A stretch of 64,000 bases of DNA from an uncultured Clostridia bacterium (GCA_934434555.1 CAKRZX010000002.1:22376-86375), one strand, 5' to 3'. Positions 9,566 to 27,857 are shown, counted from the stretch's first letter. Notes: generated by a model not told the origin, from the sequence alone. Translations and numbers: made by a program.

Positions 9566-10939
9566 ATGACGGAAACAAAAAAAGGCTTTTTTAAGAAAAG
9601 CGGCGACGTTGATATGACGGTGGGCAGTATAAGCAAGCATATAATTATGTTTGCACTGCCATTATTTATAGGGAATATTTTTCAGCAACTTTATAACACG
9701 GTGGACACGTGGGTGGTTGGCAATTATGTTTCAAACGAAGCATTTTCCGCCGTTGGCACGGTAGGACCGATTATAAATCTTTTAATCGGTTTTTTTATGG
9801 GCTTTTCAAGCGGCGCGGGTGTTGTTATAAGCCAGTATTACGGTGCAAAGAGATTTGATAAAGTGGAAAAAACAGTACATACTTCAATGACCGCCACGTT
9901 TATTTTCTGCATTCTCTTTACGGTTCTCGGAGTGGCGCTTGTGCCTTTAATGCTCTCTTTAATGAAAACTCCCGACGACGTGTTAGCCGAAGCCACGGAG
10001 TATCTTACAATTTATTTTGCCGGTGTCAGCGGGTTGCTTATCTACAATATAGGGTCGGGTATTCTGCGTGCGGTAGGCGATTCTTCAAGACCGTTTTTCT
10101 TTTTGGTTGTTTCGGCAGTGGTAAACACCGTGCTTGATTTGGTGTTCGTACTCTGCTTTAATATGGGCGTTGAGGGCGTTGCCTATGCAACCATAATTGC
10201 ACAAGGCGTGTCCGCAGTGCTTGTTTTAATCGAGCTTATGCGTACTTCGTCGTGTATTAAACTTAATATAAAAAAATTGGGAATCGACTGGGAGATTTTG
10301 GGCACGGTTGCGAAAATCGGATTTCCTGCCGCATTGCAATTGGCAATTACCGCATTTTCAAACGTATTTGTACAGTCATACATAAATTATTTCGGGTCCG
10401 ACTTTATGTCCGGCTGGACGGCTTACGGAAAAATAGACCAGCTTATGCTTATGCCGCTTACGGCAGTTGCACTTGCCGCCACTACGTTTGTAGGGCAGAA
10501 CCTGGGAGTAAAAGATGTTGAACGGGCCAAAAAAGGCGTAAGGTATGCACTGCTCATTTCAGTTGTCAGTACGGTTATTTTAATGATACCGATAATGGTT
10601 TTTGCACCGCAGTTTACCGGATTCTTTAACAGTAAACCGCAGGTTGTTGAGTACGGAGCAATGCTTTTAAGGCTGATTTCGCCGTTTTATGTTCTGTGCT
10701 GTGTTAATCAGGTTTATGCAAGTTCACTGCGCGGGGCAGGCAACAGCCGTGCCCCTATGGTACTGCTTGTTTTTTCATTTGTTGTATTCCGGCAGATTTA
10801 TCTTTTCATTGTAACGCGGTTTATTTCAAATACGGTAATTCCCGTTGCGCTTTCGTATCCCGCCGGCTGGCTTGTGGCAAGCATTCTTATGACTGTTTAC
10901 TTTAAGCACGTAAAACTTACCGATTCAAGGGTGGTTTAA
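9566..10939 (+). CDS. MATE family efflux transporter
   Basis: The 457-aa ORF has a 12-TM-like profile and the N-terminal FALPLFIGNIFQQLYNTVDTWVVG typical of MATE transporters. Confidence 0.9.
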   Translation: MTETKKGFFKKSGDVDMTVGSISKHIIMFALPLFIGNIFQQLYNTVDTWVVGNYVSNEAFSAVGTVGPIINLLIGFFMGFSSGAGVVISQYYGAKRFDKVEKTVHTSMTATFIFCILFTVLGVALVPLMLSLMKTPDDVLAEATEYLTIYFAGVSGLLIYNIGSGILRAVGDSSRPFFFLVVSAVVNTVLDLVFVLCFNMGVEGVAYATIIAQGVSAVLVLIELMRTSSCIKLNIKKLGIDWEILGTVAKIGFPAALQLAITAFSNVFVQSYINYFGSDFMSGWTAYGKIDQLMLMPLTAVALAATTFVGQNLGVKDVERAKKGVRYALLISVVSTVILMIPIMVFAPQFTGFFNSKPQVVEYGAMLLRLISPFYVLCCVNQVYASSLRGAGNSRAPMVLLVFSFVVFRQIYLFIVTRFISNTVIPVALSYPAGWLVASILMTVYFKHVKLTDSRVV

Positions 10940-11652
10940 TGAAAAAGAAGGTTTTAATTACTGCGCTTTCTGCCGTTTTGATACTTATCTGCGGGCTTGT
11001 GTACACGGGCGTTATTCAGATTAACGGACTTGCGGCGTTAAAGTACGAAATCCGCGGCGTTGACGTTTCGGCGTACCAGGGAAAAATTGACTGGGAAGTT
11101 TTAAGCAAAGAAAATATCGACTTTGCGTTTATCAAAGCAACAGAGGGTTCAACCCACGTTGACGAATATTTTGAAAAGAATTTTGAAAACGCAAAGAAAA
11201 CCGCATTAAAAATAGGGGCGTATCACTTTTTCAGTTTTGAATCCGCAGGCGAAACACAGGCGCAGAATTTTATAAAAAACGTAGGCGAAGAAATGCCGCT
11301 ACCGGTTATTGATGTGGAGCATTACGGAAAATTCAATAAGAAAAACAGCGATGTTCCCGCAATAAAAAAAGAATTGCGTGTAATGGTTGAAATGTTGAAA
11401 GATTATTACGGACAAACGCCGATAATATATGCCACAAAGGCGTCGAAAAACGAGATTCTCGGCGATGATTTTGACGATTGTTTCCTGTGGCTGAGAAGTG
11501 TTTATTTTCCCGTTAACAATAAAAACGGATGGACGTTTTGGCAGTATTCAAATCGCGGCAGGTTAGAAGGATATTCGGGAAGAGAAAAGTATATAGACCT
11601 TAATGTGTTCAGGGGAACAAGAGCAGAGTTTGAAATGATGTTCGGGGGATAA
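10939..11652 (+). CDS. GH25 family lysozyme (muramidase) with an N-terminal anchor
   Basis: GVDVSAYQGKIDWEVL...FAFIKATEG is the GH25 signature. An N-terminal TM or signal segment is present. Confidence 0.88.
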   Translation: MKKKVLITALSAVLILICGLVYTGVIQINGLAALKYEIRGVDVSAYQGKIDWEVLSKENIDFAFIKATEGSTHVDEYFEKNFENAKKTALKIGAYHFFSFESAGETQAQNFIKNVGEEMPLPVIDVEHYGKFNKKNSDVPAIKKELRVMVEMLKDYYGQTPIIYATKASKNEILGDDFDDCFLWLRSVYFPVNNKNGWTFWQYSNRGRLEGYSGREKYIDLNVFRGTRAEFEMMFGG

Positions 11653-11658
11653 AAAAAG

Positions 11659-11682
11659 AGGCTGTGACGGGTGTCACAGCCT
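11659..11682. terminator. Bidirectional terminator between convergent genes
   Basis: A perfect 10-bp stem aggctgtgac/gtcacagcct with a gggt loop is flanked by an A-run upstream and a T-rich tract downstream. Confidence 0.7.
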
Positions 11683-11696
11683 TTGTTGTTCATCGA

Positions 11697-13472
11697 TTAT
11701 TTTAAGAATTTTCTTCTGTAAACGGTTACCCCGGCAAGGGAAACGAGAACAACGCCCAGTGCAATATAAAGCACTGTCAAAGGTGCGTCGCCGGTATCTT
11801 CCTTATCAGAATCGCCCGAGGGAAGTTTTGCCGTTACAACCGAATCTTTTGTAATTTCTTTTTCAAGCGCGGAATCGGCAAAATATTTGCCGCAATCTTC
11901 ACAGAGCCAGTACTCAATATTGCCCTCTGCATTTACTGTGGCGGCTTTTGCGTCAACGTGCTTTATGCCGGTATGAGCGGGTTCGATTTCCGTTATATCG
12001 GTTTTTGCGTCACAAACTTCGCAGTGACGGGACTTTGAACCTTTCTCGGTACAAGTGGCGTCCTTATCAACCGTAAAGTTTTCTGAGTAGCGGTGCTCGG
12101 CTGCGGGAATCTCAGTAATGTTTGTCTTTGCGTCGCAGCGAGTGCAATGGTTTGACTTTGAGCCTTTTTCCGTGCAGGTGGGTTTGATGTCAACAACAAA
12201 ATTGCTGTCAAAATTGTGGGAGCCGTAATAATCGTTGCAGATGTTTTCAAGTACGGCAGAAGTCTTTATGCCTGAAATACTGTTTTTGTTTGTCTGCTCG
12301 TATACGGAACCTATTGCGCTTGTTTCGGCATTGAGTTCTGTGCTGAAAGAACAATCCGCGGTTGTACCGTAACAGTCAAATCCCACAAAACCTCCCGTAG
12401 CGCCTGCGCGTTCGCCCGTAACGGTTATTTTACCGGCAAAGTGACTGTTCTTTATTTCGCTGTCGCTGTCGTTAGTGCCTACAAAACCGCCCGCCTTTAA
12501 GGGGTCATAATTAAGCGTGCTTTTAACATCGCCCATTGCAACGCAGTTGCTTATGCTGCACTGCCACGCGTAACCTATAAATCCGCCAACGTGCCAGTTT
12601 CCGCCCGAAACCTTTGCATAGGAAATGCATTTTTCCATAACGCCGCCCGCATCGGAAGAGCCGGCAAAACCGCCTACGCTGTTATAACCCGAAACAGCAC
12701 CGTCCGAAGAGCAGTTTTTATATTTTCCTATAAAGTCACTGCCTACAAAACCGCCGGAGAAACCGCGACCGATAACGATAACGTCGGATTCACAGTTTTC
12801 GTAAACACCGTATGAGTTGCTGCCGACAAGACCGCCGCATTGGTTAGGCGAACTGCTGTCAGTTGTAACCGTGCCTTGAACTTTGCAGTTTTTTACCGTG
12901 ATTTCAAGTCCGTAACCCTCGCCGGCATTGCCGATAAGTATACCAACGCCGTCGTAGCGGTTAGGGTCGGGAAGAGTTGTCTGTTTTGAAGTCACATATG
13001 CGTTTGTTATGTTGATGTTCTGCAATGAAACCGTTCCTTTGGAAGAACCGCTGAAATTGCCGAAAAAGCCTGCGGCAAAACCGTCGCCGCTTTCGTCAAC
13101 ATAAAGGTTATCAATTGTGTAACCCTTGCCGTCAAAACAGCCGTTGAAACCGTTTGTTGAAGACTGAATTGTTCCCGTGCCGATAGGAATCCAACGGTGA
13201 CCTTTAAGGTCGATGTTGTTTGTTAAAACAAAATATTCACCGTTGTGGTTTCCCTTATAAATGCCCGAGTTTGCCTCCTTGGCGAGTTTTGCCAACTGTT
13301 CTGCCGTAGAAATACGGTAGGGGTCTGTTTCCGTGCCTGTTCCGCCCGCAAACTCCTTGGCGGCATAGTCGGTCCATATACCGTCCGCCTTGGGAGCAGC
13401 AGTAATAATGAAACACTGAAACGCGGAAATGCAAAGAGCCACAGCGGCGAGAATTGCTATCCGTTTTTTCAT
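11697..13472 (-). CDS. Cell-surface protein with GLUG-motif repeats, Cys-rich C-terminal repeats and a C-terminal TM anchor
   Basis: It has a signal peptide (MKKRIAILAAVALCISAF) and at least six GG(F/L)(V/A/I)G repeats (GGLVGSN, GGFVGSD, GGFAGSS, GGFIGYA, GGFVGTN, GGFVGFD). Two TCTEKGSKSxHCxxCDAKTxITEI modules and a terminal hydrophobic helix followed by RRK are also present. Confidence 0.75.
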   Translation of the reverse strand: MKKRIAILAAVALCISAFQCFIITAAPKADGIWTDYAAKEFAGGTGTETDPYRISTAEQLAKLAKEANSGIYKGNHNGEYFVLTNNIDLKGHRWIPIGTGTIQSSTNGFNGCFDGKGYTIDNLYVDESGDGFAAGFFGNFSGSSKGTVSLQNINITNAYVTSKQTTLPDPNRYDGVGILIGNAGEGYGLEITVKNCKVQGTVTTDSSSPNQCGGLVGSNSYGVYENCESDVIVIGRGFSGGFVGSDFIGKYKNCSSDGAVSGYNSVGGFAGSSDAGGVMEKCISYAKVSGGNWHVGGFIGYAWQCSISNCVAMGDVKSTLNYDPLKAGGFVGTNDSDSEIKNSHFAGKITVTGERAGATGGFVGFDCYGTTADCSFSTELNAETSAIGSVYEQTNKNSISGIKTSAVLENICNDYYGSHNFDSNFVVDIKPTCTEKGSKSNHCTRCDAKTNITEIPAAEHRYSENFTVDKDATCTEKGSKSRHCEVCDAKTDITEIEPAHTGIKHVDAKAATVNAEGNIEYWLCEDCGKYFADSALEKEITKDSVVTAKLPSGDSDKEDTGDAPLTVLYIALGVVLVSLAGVTVYRRKFLK

Positions 13473-13626: not shown

Positions 13627-14541
13627 ATGTTATCTGTTATTATTCCGGCGTACGATGAAAGCGAAGTGCTTGAAATCGGCGCAGTCAGAACGGGCAAGGC
13701 GCTTGAAAGCGCCGGCATAGACTATGAATTGATTTATATCGACGACGGCTCAACGGACGGAACGTGGGAGAAAATATGCGCGCTTCACGAAAACGACAGA
13801 CAGATAAAAGGCGTAAGATTTTCGCGTAATTTCGGAAAAGACGCCGCGATTTTTGCGGGTCTTAAACGGTGCAGGGGCGACTGCGTTGCCGTAATCGATG
13901 CCGATATGCAGCACCCGCCGGAGAAACTTGTTGAAATGTATCATCTGTGGGAGCAGGGGTTTGAGGTTGTCGAGGGCGTAAAGAGCAGCCGCGGAAAAGA
14001 AAGAAAACTGCACAAAGCGTGCGCGAATCTGTTCTATAAAATGATGTCGGCGGTGACAAGGCTTGATATGCGCAACGCGTCGGATTTTAAACTGCTTGAC
14101 CGCAAGGTGGTAAATGCGCTTATAAAAATGCCTGAGCACCGCATGTTTTTCAGGACGCTTTCCTCATGGGTGGGGTATAAATCCTGCACGGTAGCATACG
14201 ACGTTGAACAGCGGGCGGGCGGCGAGTCAAAATGGTCGACGTACAAACTTATGAAGTATGCAATGTCGTCGGTAACGAGTTTTACCGCGCGGCCCATGCA
14301 GATTGTAACCGGCTGCGGCGTCGTTGTATTCGCGATTTCGGTATTTGTGGGCATTTGGAGCCTTGTCGACAAGATTGTCGGCAGAGCCATTGAGGGAATG
14401 ACCACGGTAATATTCCTTTTGCTTTTCATCGGCAGCATTATTATGATGAGTTTGGGCATAATAGGCTATTACATTGCAAGAATTTACGAAGAAGTTCAGG
14501 CGCGCCCAAGGTATATAGTGGACGAGTTTTTGGACGGATAA
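13627..14541 (+). CDS. GT2 polyprenyl-phosphate glycosyltransferase (GtrB/ArnC-like)
   Basis: LSVIIPAYDE...YIDDGSTDGT...DADMQHPP is followed by two C-terminal TM helices, which is the GtrB-type architecture. Confidence 0.85.
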   Translation: MLSVIIPAYDESEVLEIGAVRTGKALESAGIDYELIYIDDGSTDGTWEKICALHENDRQIKGVRFSRNFGKDAAIFAGLKRCRGDCVAVIDADMQHPPEKLVEMYHLWEQGFEVVEGVKSSRGKERKLHKACANLFYKMMSAVTRLDMRNASDFKLLDRKVVNALIKMPEHRMFFRTLSSWVGYKSCTVAYDVEQRAGGESKWSTYKLMKYAMSSVTSFTARPMQIVTGCGVVVFAISVFVGIWSLVDKIVGRAIEGMTTVIFLLLFIGSIIMMSLGIIGYYIARIYEEVQARPRYIVDEFLDG

Positions 14542-14544
14542 CAA

Positions 14545-14575
14545 AAATCGGGCTTTTAAGCACCCGATTTTTTAT
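14545..14575 (+). terminator. Rho-independent terminator after the GtrB-like gene
   Basis: The stem aaatcggg/cccgattt is followed by a T-run. Confidence 0.55.
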
Positions 14576-14635
14576 CTGTTTTATTAACTTTTTGTGGAAA
14601 AATGCGGCGATGTCTACGAAAATCATAAAAATTAC

Positions 14636-14664
14636 TTGACATTCACCGATTTTTGGCGTATTAT
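14636..14664 (+). promoter_or_regulatory. Sigma-A-like promoter of the EPS operon leader
   Basis: The layout is TTGACA (14636-14641), a 17-nt spacer, then TATTAT (14659-14664). Confidence 0.5.
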
Positions 14665-14680
14665 AATGCTATATAATTTA

Positions 14681-14750
14681 ATAGGGGTAAACTCATTGAA
14701 AGATGAGGACACAAAGTCATTGTGCCTAAGGTTTATTACTACGGTTGACA
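14681..14750 (+). promoter_or_regulatory. c-di-GMP-I (GEMM-I) riboswitch-like aptamer
   Basis: The sequence ataGGGGTAAACTCATTGAAAGATGAGGACACAAAGTCattgtgCCTAAGgtttattacTACGGtTGAC parallels the Vibrio Vc2 aptamer as I recall it (GGGCAAACCATTCGAAAGAGTGGGACGCAAAGCC..CCTAAAC..). It has a 6-bp hairpin capped by a GAAA tetraloop. It also has the ACACAAAG junction and a near-canonical 11-nt tetraloop receptor (CCUAAG/UACGG) in the second hairpin. Confidence 0.7.
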
Positions 14751-14798
14751 GACTGCAATTTCTGCAAGGTTTTCTTGCACATATTGCAGTCTTTTTTT
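14751..14798 (+). terminator. Intrinsic terminator (riboswitch expression platform)
   Basis: The outer stem is GACTGCAAT...ATTGCAGTC and the inner stem is TGCAAG/CTTGCA, followed by T7. It directly abuts the aptamer. Confidence 0.8.
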
Positions 14799-14876
14799 AT
14801 TGCTTTGGGCGCAAAAATTTCGCAAAAAGAAGATTTCGGCAGTTTCAGCGCGGCTTGTGCGGGATTTTTGATTTCA

Positions 14877-15218
14877 ATGCTGCTGTTTTTGGGCGAGTTT
14901 GTGTTCGTTTCAAAAATGAAATGGCATCTCGGGTGCGATATGTATCTCTGCCTTATTCCGTGTGCGTACTTTCTCTTGAAAGCGGCACTTGCAGGCAAAA
15001 TACAAATTGCCGACGGCGGAATTTTAAGGCAGCACAGTTCGCTTATATATTTTGCCCATATGTTCTGTGCGGAAATCTGCTGGATTTTAACACCTGTTGA
15101 AAACGCAAATTCACTTGTTATGTTTTTGATTATATTTGCTCCTACGGTTTTGCCTGATACGGCAATAATCTTTGCGGCAAAGTCAAAAAGACTGAGTTTT
15201 ATAAAAAGGTTTTATTAA
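14877..15218 (+). CDS. Small hydrophobic ORF, possibly a remnant of an acyltransferase-3-type gene
   Basis: This is an in-frame M downstream of the terminator within track ORF 14745..15218. The C-terminal part (SLIYFAHMF...LIIFAPTVL) is membrane-like. There is no convincing RBS, so the call is weak. Confidence 0.3.
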   Translation: MLLFLGEFVFVSKMKWHLGCDMYLCLIPCAYFLLKAALAGKIQIADGGILRQHSSLIYFAHMFCAEICWILTPVENANSLVMFLIIFAPTVLPDTAIIFAAKSKRLSFIKRFY

Positions 15219-15230
15219 GAGGAAGAAAAG

Positions 15231-16745
15231 TTGGGCAAATACGCAAGAAAGATAAAATTCAATATCTTATCGGTAGTGCTTTGCCAAATTGTCACCGTAG
15301 CCGTGGGCTTTATCCTGCCGAGAATTTATATAGAAAACTTCGGTTCCGCGGTAAACGGAGTGCTTTCAACAATAAAGCAGATTTTTACCTACCTTTGCCT
15401 TTTGGAAGCGGGGGTGGGGCTGGCAACATCGCAGGCGCTGCTTAAACCCGTTGCCACGGGCGACAAAGATAAAATAAACAGCATTCTTGCCGCAACAAAA
15501 AAGCATTACACAAAAATCGGCATTATTTATTCTGCCTCTATTGTGCTTATCGGCGTTGTTTACGGATTCTTTGTAAATACGGGAATGAATCCTTTTACCG
15601 TTGTTGCGCTTGTTCTCTTAAACGGAATACCGTCGCTTATAACTTTCTTCATTCAGGGCAAGTATTGCATTTTGCTTGAAACCGACGGTATGCAGTATGT
15701 TATAACAAATTCGCAAACGGTTTTGCAGACCGTAAGCGGACTTCTTAAAGCGGCAGTACTGCTTTTGACAAACAATCTTATACTTATGCAGGCGTCATAT
15801 TGCCTTGTTGCGTCGGCGCAGCTTATCTATGTAACGCTTTACGCGCGGCGGCGCTATAAATGGCTTGATTTTTCGGTTTCTCCCGATTCAGGCGCAATAT
15901 CGCAAAAGAATTCCGTACTCGTGCACCAGATATCGGCAATGGTTTTCAATAATACCGACATTTTGCTTCTGTCGTTTTTAACCGATTTTTCAACGGTAAG
16001 TGTTTATTATATCTACAATCTGTTCTTTTCGCAGGTTGAAGCATTTACAAGCAGTGTTGTAAAGGGATTCAATTTCGCCTTGGGGCAGTTGTTCTCCGTT
16101 GACAGGCAAGCGTTTATAAAAAAGTTCAGGATTTATGAAAGCCTTTACGTTACCGCAAATTTTATCGTTTATACTTTGATGTGTGTTTTCCTTTTACCGG
16201 TGATACAGATTTATACCGGAGGAATAAACGACGCGAATTATATCAACCCTGCGCTTGTGCTTCTGTTTGCGGTTGCTAAAATGATTTCCGCGGCAAAGAT
16301 ACCCGTAAGTCAGATTATTGAGTATTCGGGAAGTTTTAACGCCACTAAGTGGCACGCCGTCTGCGAAATGATTATAAACCTGACTTTCACCGTCGGCGGA
16401 ATTTTTGCTTGGGGCATTTGCGGTGCTCTTGCCGGTACGGTTGCGGCAATAGCTTTCAGGTACTTTGCCGCCGTGGTTTTCGCAAACAAAAAAGTGCTTA
16501 TGCGTTCGGCAAAGGACAGTTTTTTACTTTTTGCCGTAAACGCAGCGGTTTTTTTGATTGTTTTTTTAGTGTTTAATACAACGCATTTTTGCAATCTGGG
16601 ATTTTGGAAACTTTGTCTTAACGGTGTGATTCATATGCTTTGGATAATACCGTTATACGTGCTTGCAAACTTTGTTCTGCGTCCCGACGTATATAAAAAT
16701 TTGATTTTAAGCCTGAAAGGCAGAAAAAATGAAAGAGATAATTAA
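15231..16745 (+). CDS. wzx: Polysaccharide flippase (Wzx, MOP superfamily)
   Basis: The 504-aa polytopic protein has a TTG start after aagagga, a typical Wzx length and profile, and an EPS locus context. Confidence 0.85.
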   Translation: MGKYARKIKFNILSVVLCQIVTVAVGFILPRIYIENFGSAVNGVLSTIKQIFTYLCLLEAGVGLATSQALLKPVATGDKDKINSILAATKKHYTKIGIIYSASIVLIGVVYGFFVNTGMNPFTVVALVLLNGIPSLITFFIQGKYCILLETDGMQYVITNSQTVLQTVSGLLKAAVLLLTNNLILMQASYCLVASAQLIYVTLYARRRYKWLDFSVSPDSGAISQKNSVLVHQISAMVFNNTDILLLSFLTDFSTVSVYYIYNLFFSQVEAFTSSVVKGFNFALGQLFSVDRQAFIKKFRIYESLYVTANFIVYTLMCVFLLPVIQIYTGGINDANYINPALVLLFAVAKMISAAKIPVSQIIEYSGSFNATKWHAVCEMIINLTFTVGGIFAWGICGALAGTVAAIAFRYFAAVVFANKKVLMRSAKDSFLLFAVNAAVFLIVFLVFNTTHFCNLGFWKLCLNGVIHMLWIIPLYVLANFVLRPDVYKNLILSLKGRKNERDN

Positions 16746-17256
16746 AAAAGATTTATATCGGTACTACGGCGGAAAGGAACCGCTTGCAAAACGGATTTTC
16801 CGCAAGCCGGAAATAAAATTCATTATTGCCCTGAGGCGTGCTCACAACAGCAAAAATCCGATGAGGCATTTAAGGCTCTTGTATCTTTCACATAAAACGG
16901 GAATACAGATTCCAGCAAAAACCGAAATCGGCGAGGGCTTTTATATCGGGCATTTCGGAAGAGTGATAATAAACCCGAATTGCGTTTTGGGCAAAAATAT
17001 AAACATTGCAACCGGCGTAACGCTCGGGCAGGAAAATCGCGGCGCGCGGAAGGGTTCGCCGAAGATAGGCGATAACGTGTGGATAGGTACAAACGCAGTG
17101 GTCGTCGGCAATATAACCGTGGGAAGCGATGTTTTGATCGCACCCCTTGCATATGTTAATTTTGATGTTCCCGACCACAGCATAGTTATCGGGAATCCCG
17201 CAAGGATAATCAAAAGGGAAAACGCAACCGAAAGTTATATTAACAACAAGGTGTAA
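16729..17256 (+). CDS. Left-handed beta-helix O-acetyltransferase (serine acetyltransferase-like)
   Basis: Hexapeptide repeats are present: IGEGFYIGHFGRVIINPNCVLGKNINIATGVTLG...IGDNVWIGTNAVVVGNITVGSDVLIA. Confidence 0.85.
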   Translation: MKEIIKKDLYRYYGGKEPLAKRIFRKPEIKFIIALRRAHNSKNPMRHLRLLYLSHKTGIQIPAKTEIGEGFYIGHFGRVIINPNCVLGKNINIATGVTLGQENRGARKGSPKIGDNVWIGTNAVVVGNITVGSDVLIAPLAYVNFDVPDHSIVIGNPARIIKRENATESYINNKV

Positions 17257-17259
17257 ACG

Positions 17260-18000
17260 ATGAGCATACCGAAAGTGATTTATTATTGCTGGTACGGCAA
17301 AAATCCGTTGCCGAAATCGGTAAAAAAGTGCATGGAATCGTGGGAAAAGCAATGCCCGGAATATAAAATTGTCCGCATTGACGAAACGAATACCGATATT
17401 AACGAAAATGAATATGTTTCTCAGGCTTATTCCGCCGGCAAGTGGGCATTCGTAAGCGATTATTTCAGGCTTAAAGCAGTTTATGAGAACGGCGGAGTCT
17501 ATCTTGACACCGATGTTGAACTTATAAAAAGCCTTGATTGCCTGACGGAAAAATATGACGGCTTTTTCGGCTTTGAGCAGGGGAAAAATCTTATTGCCAC
17601 CGGGCTTGGGTTCGGGGCAAAAAAGAATAACAAATTCGTTAAGGCAATGCTTGATTCTTATGAAAACATTACGTTTTTTGATTCTTCCGGCAAAGCCGAC
17701 GAAACACCGTGTCCCGAAAGGAATACCGCTGCGCTTGTCAAAATGGGGGTTGACACGCAAAAGCGGAACCAGGTAATAGATAACGTTTGTTTCTTGAAAG
17801 AAGAAGTACTTTGCCCGATAAATTTTTTTACCGGCAAAAAGAAAATAACGAAAGACACGGTTTCCGTGCATCATTACGGCGCGTCCTGGTGCAGCGATGT
17901 CACAAGGCGCACGTTAAGGCTCAAAAAAATAATCGGAATTAAGAATTACAGCATTCTTTACGGGAAACTTCTTCATAAATCAAACAGGTGGGAATGGTAA
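17260..18000 (+). CDS. Glycosyltransferase, GT32-like (DXD)
   Basis: IYYCWYGKNPLP...WAFVSDYFRLKAVYENGGVYLDTDVE is a typical capsular GT32/OCH1-like signature. Confidence 0.8.
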   Translation: MSIPKVIYYCWYGKNPLPKSVKKCMESWEKQCPEYKIVRIDETNTDINENEYVSQAYSAGKWAFVSDYFRLKAVYENGGVYLDTDVELIKSLDCLTEKYDGFFGFEQGKNLIATGLGFGAKKNNKFVKAMLDSYENITFFDSSGKADETPCPERNTAALVKMGVDTQKRNQVIDNVCFLKEEVLCPINFFTGKKKITKDTVSVHHYGASWCSDVTRRTLRLKKIIGIKNYSILYGKLLHKSNRWEW

Positions 18001-18680
18001 TGCAGTATATCGATATCGAGAAAATCGATGGAAAGACCGCGAGCAGATTGGAGAGAATAATAGAAAAATCCTATGCTTCGTACTGGAAAAAGAAACGGGC
18101 GTTTGATATAATCGCCGCAACGCTTTTGCTTATTCCGCTTTTCGTGCCGATTTTGATTATGGCGCTGATTATATTTATTGACGACCCTCACGGAAATCCT
18201 TTTTATAAGCAGGTGCGTATCGGGCGTCACGGAGAGGAATTCTATATGTACAAGTTCCGTTCAATGCACGTTGACGCTGATAAACGCAAGAAAGAACTGC
18301 TTGATAAAAACGAAATGGACGGACCTGTTTTTAAGATAAAAAATGACCCGAGGGTTACAAGGGTGGGAAAAGTGATAAGAAAGTTTTCAATAGACGAACT
18401 GCCGCAGTTGTTTAATGTTTTTGCGGGTAATATGAGCCTTGTAGGACCGCGTCCGCCGCTTCCTGAGGAGGTGGAAAAGTACACCGATTATGATAAACTC
18501 CGCCTTATAGTTACTCCGGGGATAACCTGCACATGGCAGATCTCAAAAAACAGAAACGATGTTTCATACGAAAAATGGCTTGAAATGGACCTTGATTACA
18601 TAGAACACCGAACAACATGGGGAGACATAAAAATTATACTTAAAACTCCCATTGCAATGCTTGAAGCCACAGGGAGATAG
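18000..18680 (+). CDS. Initiating phosphoglycosyltransferase (bacterial sugar transferase, small monotopic PGT)
   Basis: FKFRSM...DGPVFKIKNDPRVTRVG..IDELPQLFNVFAGNMSLVGPRPP matches the family. I chose the ATG at 18000 (TAATG overlap, aggtggga RBS). GTG at 17988 and ATG at 17994 are alternatives. Confidence 0.9.
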   Translation: MQYIDIEKIDGKTASRLERIIEKSYASYWKKKRAFDIIAATLLLIPLFVPILIMALIIFIDDPHGNPFYKQVRIGRHGEEFYMYKFRSMHVDADKRKKELLDKNEMDGPVFKIKNDPRVTRVGKVIRKFSIDELPQLFNVFAGNMSLVGPRPPLPEEVEKYTDYDKLRLIVTPGITCTWQISKNRNDVSYEKWLEMDLDYIEHRTTWGDIKIILKTPIAMLEATGR

Positions 18681-18681
18681 A

Positions 18682-19812
18682 ATGAAAATATCAATGATAG
18701 GGCATAAGGCCGTGCCGTCAACAAGAGGCGGAATAGAAACGGTGCTTACAAACCTTTGCCCGATTTTAGTAAAAAAGGGAGCGGAAGTCGTATGCTTCAA
18801 CCGAAGTTCCGACCGCGCTGAACCGGAATTTATCAGTGAAATTAAGGACGGGAAATACAAAGACGTTACAATTAAGAAGGCGGGTACACTGAACATAAAC
18901 GGAGTTTCCGCGTTGCTTGCGTCCTTTTCGGCGGCATTTGCCTGCCTCTTTAATAAAAGCGACATAATACACTTTCACGCCGAGGGTCCGTCGGCAGCAA
19001 TATTTCTGCCGAAAATGTTCGGTAAAAAATGCGTTGCCACGGTTCACGGGCTTGACTGGCAGAGGGATAAGTGGAAAAACGGCTTGGGCGCAAAGTATAT
19101 TAAGTTCGGCGAAAAAATGATTGCAAAGCACGCCGACGGAATTATAGTTTTAAACCGCAGTACAAAAGATTATTTCAAAAAAACGTATAACCGTGATTCC
19201 GTAATTATTTATAACGGCGTGAATAATCCCGAAATAATTGACGATGATATAATTTCCGCAAAATTCGGACTGAAAAAGGACGGTTATATATGCGTTGTTG
19301 CAAGGCTTACCGAGGAAAAGGGAATCCTCTGCCTTATAGATGCATTTAAGGGAATAAAAACGGATAAAAAACTTGTTATCTGCGGCGAGGGAAACGGCGA
19401 TTACACGAAAAAATTGAAAAAGGCGGCAGAGGGAAATGAGAATATTATCTTTACCGGGTTCATTTCCGGAATAACGCTTGCGTCAATGTATTCAAGTGCG
19501 TATCTTGTCTGTCAGACGTCCAATATTGAGGGTATGTCAATAAGCCTTTTGGAGGCGCTTTCCTATTCAAATGCGGTGCTGTGTTCGGATATTCCGGAAA
19601 ATTCCGATGTGTGCGGCGGGAATGCCGTATATTTCCGAAAAAACGACAGCGGCGACTTAAAAGAAAAACTTGAAATGATGCTGAATAATAAAGATGTTGT
19701 TGAAAAACTCAGGCTTACTGCATCGGAAAGTGTTCTTTCAAGATTTTCCTGGGAAAAGAACGCCGAACAGACACTTGAATTCTATGAAAATATACTGAAA
19801 GGGGCAAATTGA
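18682..19812 (+). CDS. GT4 family glycosyltransferase
   Basis: MKISMIGHKAVPSTRGGIETV begins the protein, and an EX7E-type motif (EGMSISLLEALS) is present. The start was moved to 18682. Confidence 0.88.
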   Translation: MKISMIGHKAVPSTRGGIETVLTNLCPILVKKGAEVVCFNRSSDRAEPEFISEIKDGKYKDVTIKKAGTLNINGVSALLASFSAAFACLFNKSDIIHFHAEGPSAAIFLPKMFGKKCVATVHGLDWQRDKWKNGLGAKYIKFGEKMIAKHADGIIVLNRSTKDYFKKTYNRDSVIIYNGVNNPEIIDDDIISAKFGLKKDGYICVVARLTEEKGILCLIDAFKGIKTDKKLVICGEGNGDYTKKLKKAAEGNENIIFTGFISGITLASMYSSAYLVCQTSNIEGMSISLLEALSYSNAVLCSDIPENSDVCGGNAVYFRKNDSGDLKEKLEMMLNNKDVVEKLRLTASESVLSRFSWEKNAEQTLEFYENILKGAN

Positions 19813-21020
19813 ATATGAACGAAGTTTTCAGGCATATTTGCTTGCAGGCGGAAAAAACACTTTCAGCAGAAGAACTTGATTTGTTGAAAAATACGTTTAC
19901 GCTTATAAAATGTGACGGCAACCTGTTTGTGTTCGGATACAGGGACAAAGCCGCGTACAATGAATTTTTGGCAAAAAACAAGAATGCTTTGCGCAGCGCG
20001 TGCGGCGAGGTCTGCGGACAGATGCCCGATATAAGGTTCAGATTTTTGAAGAAAAAACGCGAAAGCGAAGATAAGCGTGAAAAGAACTGTAAAAAAGGTA
20101 TAAAAAATGTAGTTGCGTCGCTTATCTGCCTTGTACTTGCATTTGTTTTGGGTGTTATAAGCGTAAACTATATAGCAAACAGAAATTTTAAGGAAGATTT
20201 CTATTCCGTAAGCATAGCGCGGACGGCTGAAAATTTCAGGGTGATTCAACTTTCCGACCTGCACAACTGCTCTTACGGAACGGACAACAAAAATCTGCTT
20301 GACAGAATTACAAAACTCAGACCCGATATCATCGTTCTTACCGGCGACTGCCTTGACGAAAACGGCGATGTTGAACAGATTGTCCGCTTCTGCCGTGCTT
20401 TAAGGGAAATTGCTCCCGTGTATTATATTTACGGCAATAATGAGTGCAGACGGGCATTTTCATCGGTTATGACACTTGAAAGTCTTGATTCGCTTATAGA
20501 CGCAACGGACGAAAACAGAGATGTAAAAAAACTTTACGCTCTTGACAACGGCTTAAAAGCAACGCTTGAATCGAGCGGCATAAAGGTGCTGTTTAACGAA
20601 AGCGACAGCATTACGGTGGGAGAAAACAAAATCCGTATTTTCGGAACGCTCACGTCAAACCCGTCGGCATTCTGGCAGTATGCGGGAGCGGAATTCAGCA
20701 AATTCATAACGGAAAACAGCGATGAAATCAAACTGTTTCTATGCCACGAACCGCTGCTTATCGAAACGATAAAAGAGCCTTATTGGGGCGATTTGGTGCT
20801 TTCGGGCGATACTCACGGGGGAGAAGCGAGAATCCCCGGATTGGGCGCGGTGTATTCACGATCTTTCGGGTTTTTCCCCGAAAGAAGCAAGCATATGATA
20901 TACGGAAAATATACTTCCGGCGATTCACAGGTAATAGTAAGTTCGGGGCTTGAAAACAAAAACCCTTTAAGGATATTCAATCAGCCCGAAATAGCGATAA
21001 TCGACATTAACAAGTATTAA
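19809..21020 (+). CDS. Membrane-anchored calcineurin-like metallophosphoesterase with a DnaA-N-like N-terminal domain
   Basis: Phosphoesterase motifs are present: LSDLHN, LTGDCLDE, GNNE, LCHEP and SGDTHGG. A single TM (VVASLICLVLAFVLGVISV) lies in the middle. The roughly 80 N-terminal residues follow the DnaA domain I pattern. ATG at 19815 is an alternative start. Confidence 0.8.
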   Translation: MNMNEVFRHICLQAEKTLSAEELDLLKNTFTLIKCDGNLFVFGYRDKAAYNEFLAKNKNALRSACGEVCGQMPDIRFRFLKKKRESEDKREKNCKKGIKNVVASLICLVLAFVLGVISVNYIANRNFKEDFYSVSIARTAENFRVIQLSDLHNCSYGTDNKNLLDRITKLRPDIIVLTGDCLDENGDVEQIVRFCRALREIAPVYYIYGNNECRRAFSSVMTLESLDSLIDATDENRDVKKLYALDNGLKATLESSGIKVLFNESDSITVGENKIRIFGTLTSNPSAFWQYAGAEFSKFITENSDEIKLFLCHEPLLIETIKEPYWGDLVLSGDTHGGEARIPGLGAVYSRSFGFFPERSKHMIYGKYTSGDSQVIVSSGLENKNPLRIFNQPEIAIIDINKY

Positions 21021-21035
21021 GGAGGTGCTTTTTGA

Positions 21036-22400
21036 TTGATACCACAGATAATTAAGGCGGCGGTGATTTTAGTATCGTTTTTTCTGTTTGCCCGGGCGGC
21101 GGTCGTTTTTTATAAAAAGTCGCGGCATCAAACGAAAAGTCAGACAAAAGCGGAATTAAAAAAGGTGAAAATCTTTTCTTTCGGCGCGTTCGTGTATGCA
21201 ATTATAATCTGTTTTTGTTTTACTCTTGCATCCTACTTTGATACCGCAAAACAGGCAAGCGCGGTTGTTGCGCTTAACTATGCCGAGGCTTCTTTGGGGC
21301 AGAACGTAAACGGAACAAGGTTCAATATGTCCGAAATAATCTCCGACGACGTTATGAAAAGAGTAATAAAAAAAGGCGGATTCGATGATTTGACCGTTGA
21401 CGACTTAAAAGAATGTTTCAGCGTTTCGGCACTGAATCAGGGCAATTCCTATTCAAAGGACAAGTATCATATTTCAACCGAGTTTGCGGTGCAGTATCAG
21501 GCAAGCAAAAAAACGAAAAAATATGATTCAAATGCGGTGGTGCAACTTCTGTGCAATTCTTACCGTGATTATTACTTTGACAATTACGTAAACGACTTTC
21601 AACTGCTTAACGATGAGCGGACGGCGGACGGGCTTGATTATATTGATGCCGCCGACCTTTTAAGCAAGCGCGCGAACAATATTCTGAACTATCTTTACGG
21701 ACTTCGGGAGAAAAATTCTGCGTTTATTTCATCAAACGGCTCAACGTTTGCTTCCGTTGCGGCAAAAGTCGAACTGCTTTCGTCGGCACAGATAAACGAT
21801 TCGGTTTATTCCTTTATTCTGCAAAACGGAATTTCAAAGGACAGCGAAAAACTTATCAGTCGGTATACGTATACGAATATTCTGTACGGGTACGACAAGC
21901 AGAAAGTGCAGCAGGCATACAGCATAACAAACAGTGCCGTTGCAAAGTACGATAAGGATATGGCGCGTATAGTGCTCGTTCCCACATGGGATAACGACGG
22001 GCAGTATTACATGGGACGCACGAAAATAGGAATTGATACTCTTTCGAAGCAGTCGGTTTCGTACAGCAATAGTATTGCGTCAATCGAAAAAAGCATAAAG
22101 GACAATGAACTGAAAATAGAAAAGTTCAAATCCGCGGCGGGCAACAGTGAAGAAAACAGGGAATATGTTGCGTCGCTTATATCGTCTGCGGAAAAGAGCC
22201 TCGAAGAATTGGCACACGAGGCGAGGGCAATAGGTCAGGAATACTATTCAAGTCAGATGAACGAATGTATTTCCGCAGCCGTTTATCAGGGAACATTGTT
22301 TTCAAAAGCAAAAGTGTTAGCGCTTGTTACGGTATTGGCGTACATTGCATTTTGGGCAAAAAAGTCGTCGGAGAAATTCGGCGCTCACGAAGAGGACTAA
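21036..22400 (+). CDS. Polysaccharide co-polymerase (Wzz/PCP)-like membrane protein
   Basis: TM segments sit at both ends and flank a region of about 350 aa. The N-proximal stretch (ASAVVALNYAEASLGQNVNGTRFNMSEIISDDVMKRVI) is paralogous to the same region of the next gene. TTG start after ggagg. Confidence 0.55.
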   Translation: MIPQIIKAAVILVSFFLFARAAVVFYKKSRHQTKSQTKAELKKVKIFSFGAFVYAIIICFCFTLASYFDTAKQASAVVALNYAEASLGQNVNGTRFNMSEIISDDVMKRVIKKGGFDDLTVDDLKECFSVSALNQGNSYSKDKYHISTEFAVQYQASKKTKKYDSNAVVQLLCNSYRDYYFDNYVNDFQLLNDERTADGLDYIDAADLLSKRANNILNYLYGLREKNSAFISSNGSTFASVAAKVELLSSAQINDSVYSFILQNGISKDSEKLISRYTYTNILYGYDKQKVQQAYSITNSAVAKYDKDMARIVLVPTWDNDGQYYMGRTKIGIDTLSKQSVSYSNSIASIEKSIKDNELKIEKFKSAAGNSEENREYVASLISSAEKSLEELAHEARAIGQEYYSSQMNECISAAVYQGTLFSKAKVLALVTVLAYIAFWAKKSSEKFGAHEED

Positions 22401-22412
22401 GGAGGTGCTTCC

Positions 22413-24293
22413 GTGGAAGAGAAAAATGTTTTTGGGCTTATAAAAAAACTGCTCCCGTATGTAGTGGTGCTTGCTTTGATTCTTACCGCTTTTATCGGGG
22501 CTGCTTTAAGAAAACAGCAGAAATATATTGCGTCGGCGGTAATAAGTTATAATTTCAAATCCGCCGAGGAAGGTAAGACACCCGCGGGAACGGATTTGGA
22601 CGTGAATGAAATAAAGTCGTCGGCAATATTGAGTAAGGCGATAGAAAAACTTTCGCTTTCAGCCGAATATTCGGCAGATAAACTTTCGTCACGAATAAGC
22701 ATTACACCCGTGCCCGACCCCGACAAAGAGGCACAGAAGAAGGCAAAACTTGAAGAGGGCGAAGAATATGTCTATGTCCCTTCAACGTATATTGTTGCTT
22801 TTGCCGCAACAAGCAGAGAAGGCAGCCGTTTTGCACAAAGTATGCTTGATGAGATACTTGACGCCTATTTTTCGATTTTCGGAGAAAACAACATAAATGT
22901 TGAGCACATAAGCAATAACATTAAGGAAATCTACAATAACGATTACGATTATCTGCGTATGGTGGAACATATCGATGACAATATCGAAAACACCGTAAAT
23001 ATGCTCTATCAGCGCGACAGTGCATATCCGTACTACCGTTCCACCGAAACGGGAATGTCTTTCGGGGATATTATCGGCCGCTTTGAATTTATAAGAAACG
23101 TGAACCTTAAAGACCTGTATTCCGAAATATACGATTATCAGATAACAAAAAGCAAAAGCCTGCTTAACGCATACTACGATACGAGAATAGACAACAACAG
23201 GATAACCGGCTCGAATGAAATGAAGATGTTCGATGACATCGAAGAAGTTATTGATGCTTATGTGTTCAAAATGCGTGAATCGGGAAACACGAACATAACG
23301 TACGAGTATATCATGAAAGAAGTCCACAACAAGGATATTACCGACGGCAAGGGGAATATTATAACGAAGGTTGACCAGACCGTAACGTACGATGAACTTC
23401 TTTATGCGTGGCGCGATCACGATCTTAATGATGCATATGCAACCGTTGATACCGCCTATTGCAGGTATGTGCTGGATTCTTTCAATTCCTGCACCGGCGC
23501 GTGTGAAAACGGCGAATGCGGACATTCTGATAAAACCTGTGTGCAGCTTTCCGACCCGGAATATTCCGGGAGAGAAAAAGATGCAGAAGAAAAACTTGAA
23601 GCCATAGTGGAAGAACTGAATGTCCTTTACGATAAAACCGTTACGGCAAACAGCGAGTATAACGGATATTTGGGCTGTAAGAATATTTCGATTCTTTCTT
23701 CACCGTCAACAAACGAAAGCATAAACGTAACGCTTTACAGCATTATAGCCTTTGTATTCATAATGGTTATCTGCTGCGGCGGACTTATTCTCATAGGCAG
23801 AATGAATGATATTGTTATTGCAAACTTCTATGTTGACAAGCGCACAGGATTCTATAACAGGGCGTATTTTGACAAATTCCTGCAAAAGAAGAGCAGGAGC
23901 ATTATTGACGACGGCACGGTCATAGTTTCGGTTTCCATAAAGAATCAGCGTGAGATAAACAAAGAATTCGGGCGAAGTGCGGGCGATGAAGTTATCGAAC
24001 TGTTTGCGCAGAACCTGAAAACGGCTTTCTCAAAGATGAACGCAATGTTTGTTTATAACGAAAACACGCACTTTATTTTGGTAATAGACAAAACAGATTC
24101 CATTACCGCAGAGGACGCTGTGCAGACTTTCGCGGTGTATATCGAGAACAGGGAATCGTCGGAAAACGTTGATATTAAATATTCCGTTGGCGTTGCCGAA
24201 ACGTTCAGGGAAAAGATAAAATCGGCAAGGGCACTGCTTGTTGAAGCCATAAAGAACAGCAAGGATTTTGAGGCGCTGCCGAAAGCAAAATAA
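22413..24293 (+). CDS. Wzz/PCP-like co-polymerase fused to a C-terminal degenerate GGDEF domain
   Basis: The order is TM1 (LLPYVVVLALILTAFIGAAL), a Wzz-like segment (ASAVISYNFKS..GTDLDVNEIKSSAILSKAIEKLSL), a long external region with CTGACENGECGHSDKTC, then TM2 (LYSIIAFVFIMVICCGGLILIG). A GGDEF fold follows (DKRTGFYNRAYF..INKEFGRSAGDEVI). Its GG(D/E)EF position reads NENTH, its I-site position reads SKMN and its DxD position reads SVSIK. Confidence 0.75.
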   Translation: MEEKNVFGLIKKLLPYVVVLALILTAFIGAALRKQQKYIASAVISYNFKSAEEGKTPAGTDLDVNEIKSSAILSKAIEKLSLSAEYSADKLSSRISITPVPDPDKEAQKKAKLEEGEEYVYVPSTYIVAFAATSREGSRFAQSMLDEILDAYFSIFGENNINVEHISNNIKEIYNNDYDYLRMVEHIDDNIENTVNMLYQRDSAYPYYRSTETGMSFGDIIGRFEFIRNVNLKDLYSEIYDYQITKSKSLLNAYYDTRIDNNRITGSNEMKMFDDIEEVIDAYVFKMRESGNTNITYEYIMKEVHNKDITDGKGNIITKVDQTVTYDELLYAWRDHDLNDAYATVDTAYCRYVLDSFNSCTGACENGECGHSDKTCVQLSDPEYSGREKDAEEKLEAIVEELNVLYDKTVTANSEYNGYLGCKNISILSSPSTNESINVTLYSIIAFVFIMVICCGGLILIGRMNDIVIANFYVDKRTGFYNRAYFDKFLQKKSRSIIDDGTVIVSVSIKNQREINKEFGRSAGDEVIELFAQNLKTAFSKMNAMFVYNENTHFILVIDKTDSITAEDAVQTFAVYIENRESSENVDIKYSVGVAETFREKIKSARALLVEAIKNSKDFEALPKAK

Positions 24294-24308
24294 CAGGGAG
24301 GGCAAAAC

Positions 24309-25574
24309 GTGAAAAAGGGGATAGACGCGGTAATAAAAACATACTTTCTTTCCGTTATGTTTTTAATGTACTATTTCATAACCCAGGAAACTTCCGTTGG
24401 CGGTATAGGCATTACTCTGCGTCACGTTTTTGCCCTTTTGCTTATTGTTTCGGCATTCGTGTACTTTCTCTTTTCACCGGATATTGCACGGGGGGCGGTT
24501 ACGGTAAAATCTTCACTTGTATTCGCCGTGCCGCTGGCGATAACGCTTGTTTCGTCAATGCTTGTGTGGGTAATTGAAAAAAGCGCCGCATCAACTATTG
24601 CCCGCGGACTTTCAAGCAGCATAATTTATATGAATGTTTTTTCCTGCTCGCTGGCGGCGGGAAGCGTGCTGTATGTGTTCGGTGAGGACGGAATCTGGTT
24701 CAACCTTGCCGCGATAGTTGCGTCAAACCTTGTTATGATTTTTCAGATTATACTTTCCGACGGCGCGGGCACGTTTTTTTTGGAATTTGTCCGCCTTGTG
24801 GCAACTTTTGCGTCCGACACGGGCGAGACGATAGTAAAGGCTGAAATTCACGAACTTGCTTTCTGTCTGGGGGCGTATATAATTTATATGCTTCTGAAAC
24901 CCAAAAAGAAAGTGTGGTTCTGGGTGCTTTTTGCGTTAGCCTGTTTCTGCTTTGTTGCGGCGTTAAAGCGTATTGCGGTAATTGCAATTTTCGCGGCGAT
25001 CTCAATAAGACTTCTGCTTTTGCTCCCGGGAATAATCTCACAAAAGGCGGTGTCGCGCACGGCAAACGGAATGATGATTCTGTGCATTCTGCTGCTTGTG
25101 GGCTATATCTATATAATAAGCGCCGATGCGTTTACCTATCTTGAAAAAGCGGGCATAGATACAAGCGGGCGGGCGAATATATATTCTTACGTAAAAGACT
25201 TCTACACCTTTTCGCCCCTCTTTCCGGGACGGGGAATAGGATTTTTAACATATCAACTTTATGAAAAGACGTCAATCGGTGTGTCATCGGTGCATAACGA
25301 CTTTTTGCAGTTCTATATCGATTTGGGCTTTTGGGGATATATTCTTTGGCTGATTTCAATGACTTTTCTGCGCACAATGTATTTCGGTAAAAACGACGCC
25401 GATACCGCGGCTGTTACGGCGGCGCTTACCGTATATCTGTTAATAGTTTCAAGTACCGATAATACTATGAATTATCCGCTTGTTACTACCGTTATGGGCG
25501 TTTTGATTATGGGCAACGGATTCGGTAAAAAGGTTGAGGCACAGCAAAAATATTTTGAAAGCCGACCCGTATAA
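24309..25574 (+). CDS. wzy: O-antigen/EPS polymerase (Wzy, O-antigen ligase family)
   Basis: The 421-aa polytopic protein has the Wzy_C-like stretch SSVHNDFLQFYIDLGFWGYILWL. GTG start after gggaggg. Confidence 0.8.
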   Translation: MKKGIDAVIKTYFLSVMFLMYYFITQETSVGGIGITLRHVFALLLIVSAFVYFLFSPDIARGAVTVKSSLVFAVPLAITLVSSMLVWVIEKSAASTIARGLSSSIIYMNVFSCSLAAGSVLYVFGEDGIWFNLAAIVASNLVMIFQIILSDGAGTFFLEFVRLVATFASDTGETIVKAEIHELAFCLGAYIIYMLLKPKKKVWFWVLFALACFCFVAALKRIAVIAIFAAISIRLLLLLPGIISQKAVSRTANGMMILCILLLVGYIYIISADAFTYLEKAGIDTSGRANIYSYVKDFYTFSPLFPGRGIGFLTYQLYEKTSIGVSSVHNDFLQFYIDLGFWGYILWLISMTFLRTMYFGKNDADTAAVTAALTVYLLIVSSTDNTMNYPLVTTVMGVLIMGNGFGKKVEAQQKYFESRPV

Positions 25575-25588
25575 AAGAGAAAAAAATA

Positions 25589-26809: not shown

Positions 26810-27857
26810 TGTAAGCATAATCGTTCCCGTGTTCAGGGTGGAAAAGTATCTTGACAGGTGCGTTGAATCCCTTGTACGGCAGACCTTAAAGAATATCGAA
26901 ATTATTCTTGTGGACGACGGGTCACCCGATTCGTGCCCCGAAATGTGCGATGAGTGGGCAAAGAAAGACAGCCGGATTAAAGTTATCCGCAAGGAAAATC
27001 AGGGGCTCGGGCTTGCAAGAAATTCGGGACTTGAAAAAGCAACGGGCGAATTTATAGGCTTTGTTGACCCGGACGATTTTGTCGCACCCGATATGTTTGA
27101 AAAACTTTTTCTTGCGGCAAGAAAGGAAAACGCGGATATTGCTATGAGCGGATTATGCTGTATCGGCGGTATAATGACGGAGAAAAAAGACGCGGAAGAA
27201 AGAATAAACTGCTTTGATAAATACTCCGTGTTCAGGGGAGAAAAAGAAATCAACAGGCTTATGCTTAATGTTTCGGGCGCGAAAGCGAAAGAAAAGCAGG
27301 ACAGCAAGTACGGATTCAGCAGCGTAAAGAACATTTACCGCAGCGAAGTAATAGAGAAAAATAATCTGCGCTTTCTTTCGGAAAGGGAAGTGGCAAGCGA
27401 GGACGTTTTCTTCCTGCTTGACTTTCTTCTTAAAGCGCAGTGCGCCGTGGGAATACCGGGGGCGTATTATTATTACTGCCGCAACGGCGAATCTCTTTCA
27501 AAAAGCTACCGTCCCGACCGCTTTGAAAAGTGCAAGGTAATCATTGACGGCATAAACGGACGATTGAAAACCCGTATGCCGGAGAACGAGTATAAAGTTT
27601 ATACCGACCGTCTGTTTCAGGCATATGCGCGGGCGGCATGTATGCAGGAAATTCAGTTTGCAGAACAAAACGGGCTGACGAAAAGGGAACTTGATTCGCA
27701 CCTGAAAGCGATTTGCGCGTCGCCGCGGCTTAAAAATACGCTAAAAAATTACCCTTGGCATAAACTTCCGTTCACGCAGGCGGCATTTGCGTTTACAATG
27801 AGGTTTTCGCTTATCGGGCTTCAAAAATTTCTTGTAAGGTTAAAAAGCGGGGTGTAA
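26802..27857 (+). CDS. GT2 family glycosyltransferase
   Basis: VSIIVPVFRVEKYLDRCVESLVRQTLKNIEIILVDDGSPD and FVDPDD are present. The start was moved to 26802 (MVDVS). Confidence 0.88.
   Translation: MVDVSIIVPVFRVEKYLDRCVESLVRQTLKNIEIILVDDGSPDSCPEMCDEWAKKDSRIKVIRKENQGLGLARNSGLEKATGEFIGFVDPDDFVAPDMFEKLFLAARKENADIAMSGLCCIGGIMTEKKDAEERINCFDKYSVFRGEKEINRLMLNVSGAKAKEKQDSKYGFSSVKNIYRSEVIEKNNLRFLSEREVASEDVFFLLDFLLKAQCAVGIPGAYYYYCRNGESLSKSYRPDRFEKCKVIIDGINGRLKTRMPENEYKVYTDRLFQAYARAACMQEIQFAEQNGLTKRELDSHLKAICASPRLKNTLKNYPWHKLPFTQAAFAFTMRFSLIGLQKFLVRLKSGV

Follow-up and report, generated by a model that had tools for sequence, protein, structure and literature searches.

The structural reference for class I c-di-GMP riboswitches (c-di-GMP-I or GEMM-I; Rfam RF01051) is Vc2 of Vibrio cholerae, a two-hairpin GEMM fold in which a GAAA tetraloop docks into a CCUAAG/UAYGG-type receptor and G20, A47 and C92 contact the ligand, G20 reading one of its guanines (PMC4744006, PMC6140456). 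The class I riboswitches of V. cholerae do not act by transcription termination (PMC6366702). Bc2 of Bacillus thuringiensis, which belongs to the cap gene, is a class I ON switch and provides a precedent for control by read-through (PMC6366702). Class I riboswitches of Clostridioides difficile, also a member of the Clostridia, act through termination (e.g. upstream of flgB), and all seven functional examples are OFF switches (PMC6366702, PMC11477304), with flagella, a protease and small proteins as their cargo. The GEMM-Ib riboswitches of Geobacter sense 3′3′-cGAMP with the same fold, and a G20A change permits binding of this ligand (PMC6140456).

Here we describe a c-di-GMP-I riboswitch in a 64-kb stretch of DNA from a 320-kb gut metagenome scaffold (ENA), referred to throughout as the window (Table 1). 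It is an ordinary new example of a well-known class; the standard covariance model detects it, and knowledge of the class itself is unchanged by it. Like Vc2, it has the two-hairpin fold with the GAAA tetraloop and its receptor, the equivalents of G20, A47 and C92 and the interhelical C-G nucleotides (PMC4744006). However, there is no clear outer P1 helix and, unlike the V. cholerae class I riboswitches, it has an overlapping intrinsic terminator. Its logic would be the read-through ON logic of Bc2, but whereas Bc2 controls a single adhesin gene, the window riboswitch heads a polysaccharide operon of ~19 kb that includes a probable c-di-GMP phosphodiesterase. It shares aptamer class, bacterial class and termination output with the C. 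difficile examples. These are uniformly OFF, whereas the window has an ON-type architecture and exopolysaccharide synthesis as its cargo. The Clostridia would gain with it a family of ON-type terminator switches of class I. Eight orthologues carry the A at G20 that is diagnostic of GEMM-Ib; unlike these, the window copy has G, with which specificity for c-di-GMP would be expected (PMC6140456).

The operon cargo fits known c-di-GMP biology, and the locus offers a concrete and testable regulatory connection from c-di-GMP to the making of capsule or exopolysaccharide in uncultured Clostridia that are widespread in the human and ruminant gut (Oscillospiraceae/Acutalibacteraceae-like MAGs). The most interesting aspect is an EAL gene that lies under the riboswitch in two arrangements, a natural example of what may be feedback through a c-di-GMP-I RNA. 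A literature search, whose incomplete coverage makes it weak evidence of absence, turned up no account of this operon, nor of an exopolysaccharide cluster headed by a riboswitch in gut Clostridia.

Table 1. Features of the riboswitch-led unit and its flanks, with positions counted from the first nucleotide of the window.
Feature	Position	Strand	Basis or detail
Upstream GT2 (GtrB-like) gene	13627-14541	+	Pfam
Intrinsic terminator of the upstream GT2 gene	14543-14578	+	Hairpin AAAAAUCGGG...CCCGAUUUUU, then U's; -10.8 kcal/mol, z = -3.2
Sigma-70-type promoter, TTGACA-17-TATTAT	14636-14664	+	11/12 consensus matches
c-di-GMP-I (GEMM-I) aptamer	14676-14760	+	RF01051, R1, helix covariation in 30 distinct orthologues
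First aptamer hairpin (P2, crystal-structure naming)	14687-14712	+	Rfam alignment
Second aptamer hairpin (P3)	14715-14754	+	Rfam alignment; strands 14715-14726 and 14743-14754
Intrinsic terminator after the aptamer	stem 14750-14792, U tract (U6) 14793-14798	+	Folding
Remnant of 5′-deleted Acyl_transf_3 gene, last ~140 codons	14796-15218	+	Protein and DNA homology
First intact gene, 504-aa polytopic membrane protein	15231-16745	+	At least 10 hydrophobic segments
Remaining operon genes	16729-34241	+	Pfam
454-aa membrane protein	21036-22400	+
626-aa protein, degenerate GGDEF domain	22413-24293	+	Two membrane segments flank an outside domain of ~410 aa
455-aa EAL protein	29857-31224	+	One membrane segment, degenerate GGDEF-like region, EAL domain
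Operon-end terminator, GGCAGAC-CUUGU-GUCUGCC then U6	34513-34537	+	-11.8 kcal/mol, z = -3.75
Convergent AraC-family gene	34536-35315	-	Pfam

Aptamer identity and anatomy

The whole window was scanned against 4227 Rfam families, and c-di-GMP-I was one of two matches above gathering score. It scored 59.9 bits, where 35 is the gathering score (E 3.3e-9), with model positions 1-87 of 87 aligned. A permissive local scan of 14540-15240 returned RF01051 alone, as the same match, and c-di-GMP-I was the best-scoring family of its Rfam clan. The initial annotation had recognised a GEMM-I-like leader here by comparison with Vc2 and had proposed a covariance-model search. That search bears the reading out, and the Rfam consensus was used in place of the Vc2 sequence for the element-by-element comparison. 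The proposed control, c-di-GMP-II (RF01786), had no match in the all-family scans of the window and of 14540-15240. With a clade-specific covariance model (R1) the window aptamer scored 100.7 bits. Judged by its sequence, it is a genuine class I c-di-GMP riboswitch aptamer and would be expected to bind c-di-GMP.

Both hairpins hold the docking motifs that had been noticed at the outset. The first is capped by the GAAA tetraloop (14698-14701) on a 6-bp stem, CUCAUU-GAAA-GAUGAG, at 14692-14707. The second carries the receptor, CCUAAG at 14725-14730 and UACGG at 14740-14744, the letters of which are kept in the orthologue alignments. By the register of the Rfam and R1 alignments, the ligand contacts G20, A47 and C92 of Vc2 correspond to G14686, A14713 and C14756. 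The nucleotides of the interhelical pair (Vc2 C44-G83) are represented by C14710, within GAC, and the bulged G14747, both invariant in the alignment of close relatives; this check concerns the presence of the two nucleotides rather than their pairing. An outer P1 helix was considered as well. Duplex energies of the 5′ and 3′ flanks were no better than those of shuffles across 30 orthologous sequences, and the possible flank pairing in the window amounts to a 4-bp AAUU/AAUU (14675-14678 with 14757-14760). Because the flank energies are at chance level, the claim of a P1 helix was dropped.

With the 504-aa protein as anchor, relatives were collected from species-representative genomes. The resulting 68 loci all come from MAGs of uncultured gut Clostridia, with humans and ruminants as hosts. 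Rfam matched RF01051 in nine of the 15 nearest loci. With the R1 model, 32 loci out of the 68 proved to have a single copy each, which in every case lies ahead of the anchor gene and on the strand of the genes; another 22 have ~4 kb of upstream sequence available without a riboswitch, and in 14 the upstream sequence is too short to judge its presence. A metagenome scan with the GGDEF protein of the operon gave two loci, one of which (L070) holds a further aptamer copy, bringing the related loci to 33 in total.

Among 30 distinct orthologues, 91.3% of the pair cells are standard pairs and 12 of the 21 pairs change on both sides. All six stem pairs of the first hairpin vary on both sides, with 98% of their cells paired. 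The covariation score of 0.516 (at most 0.097 for slid partners) was reached by none of 500 shuffles, in an alignment that was fitted to the model and so favours the structure. Chance resemblance in AT-rich intergenic DNA has the low G+C of the match (0.36) in its favour and nothing else. It is refuted by the E-value over the whole window and by 33 orthologous copies with compensatory changes, and we give it practically no credence.

Promoter, terminator and switch logic

The promoter that had been described ahead of the aptamer was recovered, with TTGACA at 14636-14641, a 17-nt spacer and TATTAT at 14659-14664. It outscores every other sigma-70-like site in a 20-kb scan (14000-33900), and the TTGACA box is kept at equal distance in related leaders. 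The predicted start of transcription lies near 14671, ~5 nt before the start of the aptamer model. Since the GT2 gene upstream has its own terminator, the riboswitch leader is a separate unit, insulated from upstream transcription.

The terminator that follows the aptamer has a 5-nt apical loop and a 3x3 internal loop, because of which it was missed by a simple terminator scan. Its folding energy is -22.1 kcal/mol (z = -5.9), and none of 200 shuffles was equally stable. The initial annotation had called this terminator very strong and placed it at 14751-14798; the strength stands, but the stem starts at 14750.

Positions 14750-14759 are common to the aptamer and the terminator 5′ arm, in agreement with the overlap first proposed for the aptamer 3′ side. 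The arm consists of the last five nucleotides of the P3 3′ strand (14750-14754), G14755, C14756 (the C92 equivalent) and three more nucleotides. As the terminator 5′ arm is made of aptamer nucleotides, the aptamer and terminator folds are mutually exclusive. The aptamer secondary structure alone is worth -10.9 kcal/mol, against the -22.1 kcal/mol of the terminator. Enforcing the aptamer fold leaves a residual hairpin at 14755-14787 (-12.8 kcal/mol), which ends 5 nt before the U tract. With the terminator the more stable of two exclusive folds, termination would be the default and the ligand would favour read-through. We infer from these structures an ON (anti-termination) design.

The same overlap is found among the relatives. 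A terminator follows the aptamer in 30 of 30 orthologous leaders without a large insertion (mean -20.2 kcal/mol), and in all of them the 5′ arm takes in the C92 equivalent together with 3-4 nucleotides from the base of the second helix. Moreover, the shared tetranucleotide varies by group (GACU, GGCC, AGCU), and the aptamer partner and the terminator partner change along with it. Nothing else argues as strongly as this joint change of both partners with the shared letters that the function under selection is the competition between folds.

A switch of opposite direction, in which c-di-GMP binds a real aptamer and promotes termination, would have the C. difficile class I riboswitches, from the same bacterial class, as its precedent. 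It needs an anti-terminator that is sequestered by the bound aptamer, but here the terminator 5′ arm is itself aptamer (14750-14759) and the direct competition recurs in all 30 orthologues. Induction of a polysaccharide operon at high c-di-GMP, as by an ON switch, would also suit the usual biology. We regard an OFF switch as very improbable.

For the ON switch, the following sequence of events is proposed. At low c-di-GMP the terminator hairpin would win, taking the last five P3 nucleotides, the ligand-pairing cytosine 14756 and the nucleotides after it, and transcription would stop at the U tract. At high c-di-GMP the bound aptamer would keep 14750-14756, so that the shortened hairpin alone could form, 5 nt short of the U tract, and polymerase would pass through the acyltransferase remnant into the Wzy-type polysaccharide operon. 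This residual hairpin could still cause some termination in the bound state. The EAL phosphodiesterase made from the operon would lower c-di-GMP again, giving negative feedback. Taken together, the complete unit head (promoter, aptamer and terminator), the ON logic, the read-through into the operon and the EAL feedback make up an explanation that we hold with considerable confidence.

Three related leaders (L010:2615-2771, L004:2619 onward and L007:116 onward) contain an insertion of ~75 nt in the distal second aptamer hairpin. Despite the insertion, L010 has an Rfam score of 58 bits, and the same terminator follows.

The polysaccharide operon and the acyltransferase remnant ahead of it

The genes from 15231 to 34241 all lie on the + strand and every gap between them is at most 15 nt or an overlap; they would be read as a single transcript. 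The next convincing + strand terminator is that at the operon end, which upholds the earlier claim of a same-strand run of ~19 kb without a further terminator, and it faces the convergent AraC-family gene. Behind the 504-aa gene come genes for a hexapeptide acyltransferase, a DXD glycosyltransferase, a Bac_transf priming transferase, a GT4 and a metallophosphoesterase. The 454-aa membrane protein, the 626-aa GGDEF protein, a Wzy_C polymerase, a second GT4 and three GT2 follow, and the operon ends with the 455-aa EAL protein, a coiled-coil protein, GtrII and YdjC.

Of the parts of a Wzx/Wzy-dependent cluster, the priming transferase, the glycosyltransferases and the Wzy-type polymerase are present, with Bac_transf (2e-65), Wzy_C (1e-10), two GT4, three GT2 and the DXD glycosyltransferase all matched in Pfam. 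The 504-aa protein has no sequence match in Pfam, NCBIfam or PDB. Relatives of 53-54% identity are named 'polysaccharide biosynthesis C-terminal domain-containing protein' by NCBI, and by these names it may be a divergent Wzx-type flippase. The 454-aa protein and the adjacent 626-aa protein have a large outside domain, for which no family matched, and a PCP-like membrane layout. Neither gave a Wzz match in Pfam, even at E<=5, and a Wzz/PCP naming was dropped, with PCP-like kept as a description of the layout. In L070 (57-77% protein identity) the order is colinear from the riboswitch to the coiled-coil gene, the differences being an intact acyltransferase and a missing hexapeptide acyltransferase gene.

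Other genes flank the operon. A GH25 lysozyme-like gene (+) and a gene for a 591-aa GLUG-motif protein (-) lie within 10939-13472, and a GH2 beta-galactosidase gene (35424-38390, +) lies beyond the AraC-family regulator. The 295-nt spacer after the operon (34242-34535) contains repeats rich in G+C and, near 34259, a TTGACA...TATGAT that resembles a promoter. Rfam gave no match there at E<=1, and the idea that the spacer encodes another structured RNA was dropped for that reason.

The initial annotation had the leader heading an exopolysaccharide operon. The operon is indeed downstream; however, the leader is not in direct contact with its first gene, as an acyltransferase remnant lies between them. 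Three gene orders occur behind the riboswitch. In 15 loci it is followed directly by the 504-aa gene (order 1). In the six nearest relatives and L070 an Acyl_transf_3 gene of ~350 aa precedes the 504-aa gene (order 2), and in 11 loci a stand-alone 278-aa EAL gene and then an acetyltransferase gene do so (order 3). The window is a deletion derivative of order 2. The 351-aa acyltransferase of the related locus L008, which matches PF01757, shares 46% identity with the remnant over its own residues 207-351 (E 1e-37).

A closer inspection of the junction reveals an 8-nt microhomology, TTTATTGC, at 14796-14803, where homology to the leader stops and gene-internal homology starts. Relatives have this octamer behind the terminator as well as within the intact acyltransferase gene, which points to a microhomology-mediated deletion of ~650 bp. 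The same junction is present in a 98%-identical contig from another sample (L072:822-1295), and the deletion is therefore real and not an assembly error. The remnant has no ribosome-binding site, and in the second sample it has a 2-nt insertion and ATA at the position of the only plausible ATG of the window (14877). Therefore, the remnant is a pseudogene. The ORF 14745/14775-15218 was accordingly rejected as the true first gene, being a C-terminal fragment that lacks a ribosome-binding site and whose ATG and frame are not conserved in the 98%-identical contig.

The deletion bears on whether the leader still works. It could be a decaying relic or a constitutive attenuator, irrelevant since the deletion, with the operon driven from promoters downstream of 14798. 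The deletion ends exactly at the terminator tail, promoter-like sites in the remnant (15097-15124) could drive the operon independently, and close relatives do entirely without a riboswitch. However, promoter, aptamer and terminator are intact, the U tract is unaltered by the deletion, and the R1 score of the aptamer is on a par with those of relatives. Moreover, the aptamer core and terminator are identical in the second sample, while the adjoining remnant gained an indel and lost its ATG. We consider a relic unlikely, and a working riboswitch ahead of the operon remains the preferred reading.

EAL genes and the distribution of the riboswitch

Two proteins of the operon carry domains of c-di-GMP metabolism. 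The GGDEF domain of the 626-aa protein has ENTHF in place of GGEEF, serines in place of the metal-binding aspartates and no RxxD site. An active diguanylate cyclase in the operon was ruled out by this motif and these serines. The degenerate motif is conserved (as NDNSHF) in L070 and L071, and the domain may link the sensing of a nucleotide to assembly of the polymer. The EAL domain of the 455-aa protein matches PF00563 (E 8e-55). Aligned with the MorA GGDEF-EAL structure (4rnh), it shows the catalytic signature EVL, N, E..E, DDFG, K, EGVE and QG. The D of the K-x-D motif is replaced by S (KID to KIS; KISK), which makes the EAL activity uncertain. From its sequence, the protein is probably an active c-di-GMP phosphodiesterase.

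With EAL and degenerate GGDEF proteins encoded in the operon, the riboswitch would also control c-di-GMP turnover. The EAL gene occurs under the riboswitch in two arrangements, within the operon (the window and L070) and as the first gene (11 loci), and its position suggests negative feedback on c-di-GMP. More tentatively, the parts may form a self-limiting circuit in which high c-di-GMP opens the ON switch and both the polysaccharide and the c-di-GMP-removing EAL protein are made, with the 626-aa protein as a possible second layer. Such a circuit, if it exists, would make induction a pulse or hold it at a set point.

The riboswitch is not universal among the relatives. Seven loci (L002, L003, L005, L009, L040, L065 and L014) have the same first genes, an acyltransferase or EAL gene and then the 504-aa gene, behind a plain promoter (leaders at L002:2553-2943 and L005:2780-2920, for example). 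A search of these seven with filters off found no hidden riboswitches. That a plain promoter serves these genes in L002, L003, L005 and L009 indicates that riboswitch control is dispensable, and the absence of the riboswitch from close relatives indicates its gain or loss from one near neighbour to the next. Across uncultured gut Clostridia, the pairing of riboswitch and EAL gene recurs in two gene orders, appearing and disappearing among close relatives.

Some of the orthologous aptamers differ at the position that reads the ligand. The eight with A at the Vc2 G20 position are L015:2383-2466, L066:501-584, L033:2281-2364, L022:1971-2054, L068:2370-2453 and, all at 2415-2497, L064, L041 and L045. 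The first gene downstream of these riboswitches encodes a stand-alone EAL phosphodiesterase. Sibling copies in L018, L059 and L017 keep G.

These eight leaders, and the effect of G20A on ligand choice (PMC6140456), raise the question of whether the window aptamer might itself sense 3′3′-cGAMP, as GEMM-Ib riboswitches do. However, the window has G rather than the GEMM-Ib adenine at this position (14686), the GGDEF/EAL-type proteins of the operon belong to c-di-GMP signalling, and c-di-GMP-I scores best within the Rfam clan. We judge cGAMP sensing in the window to be highly improbable, and c-di-GMP is the expected ligand.

The window contains one other riboswitch, a cobalamin riboswitch at 49133-49309 (+), which matches RF00174 with 50.1 bits where the gathering score is 31.5. 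Behind it on the + strand lie ORFs at 49440-50549 and 50613-52451, with weak Pfam hints of DUF4430 and a prenyltransferase-like toroid.
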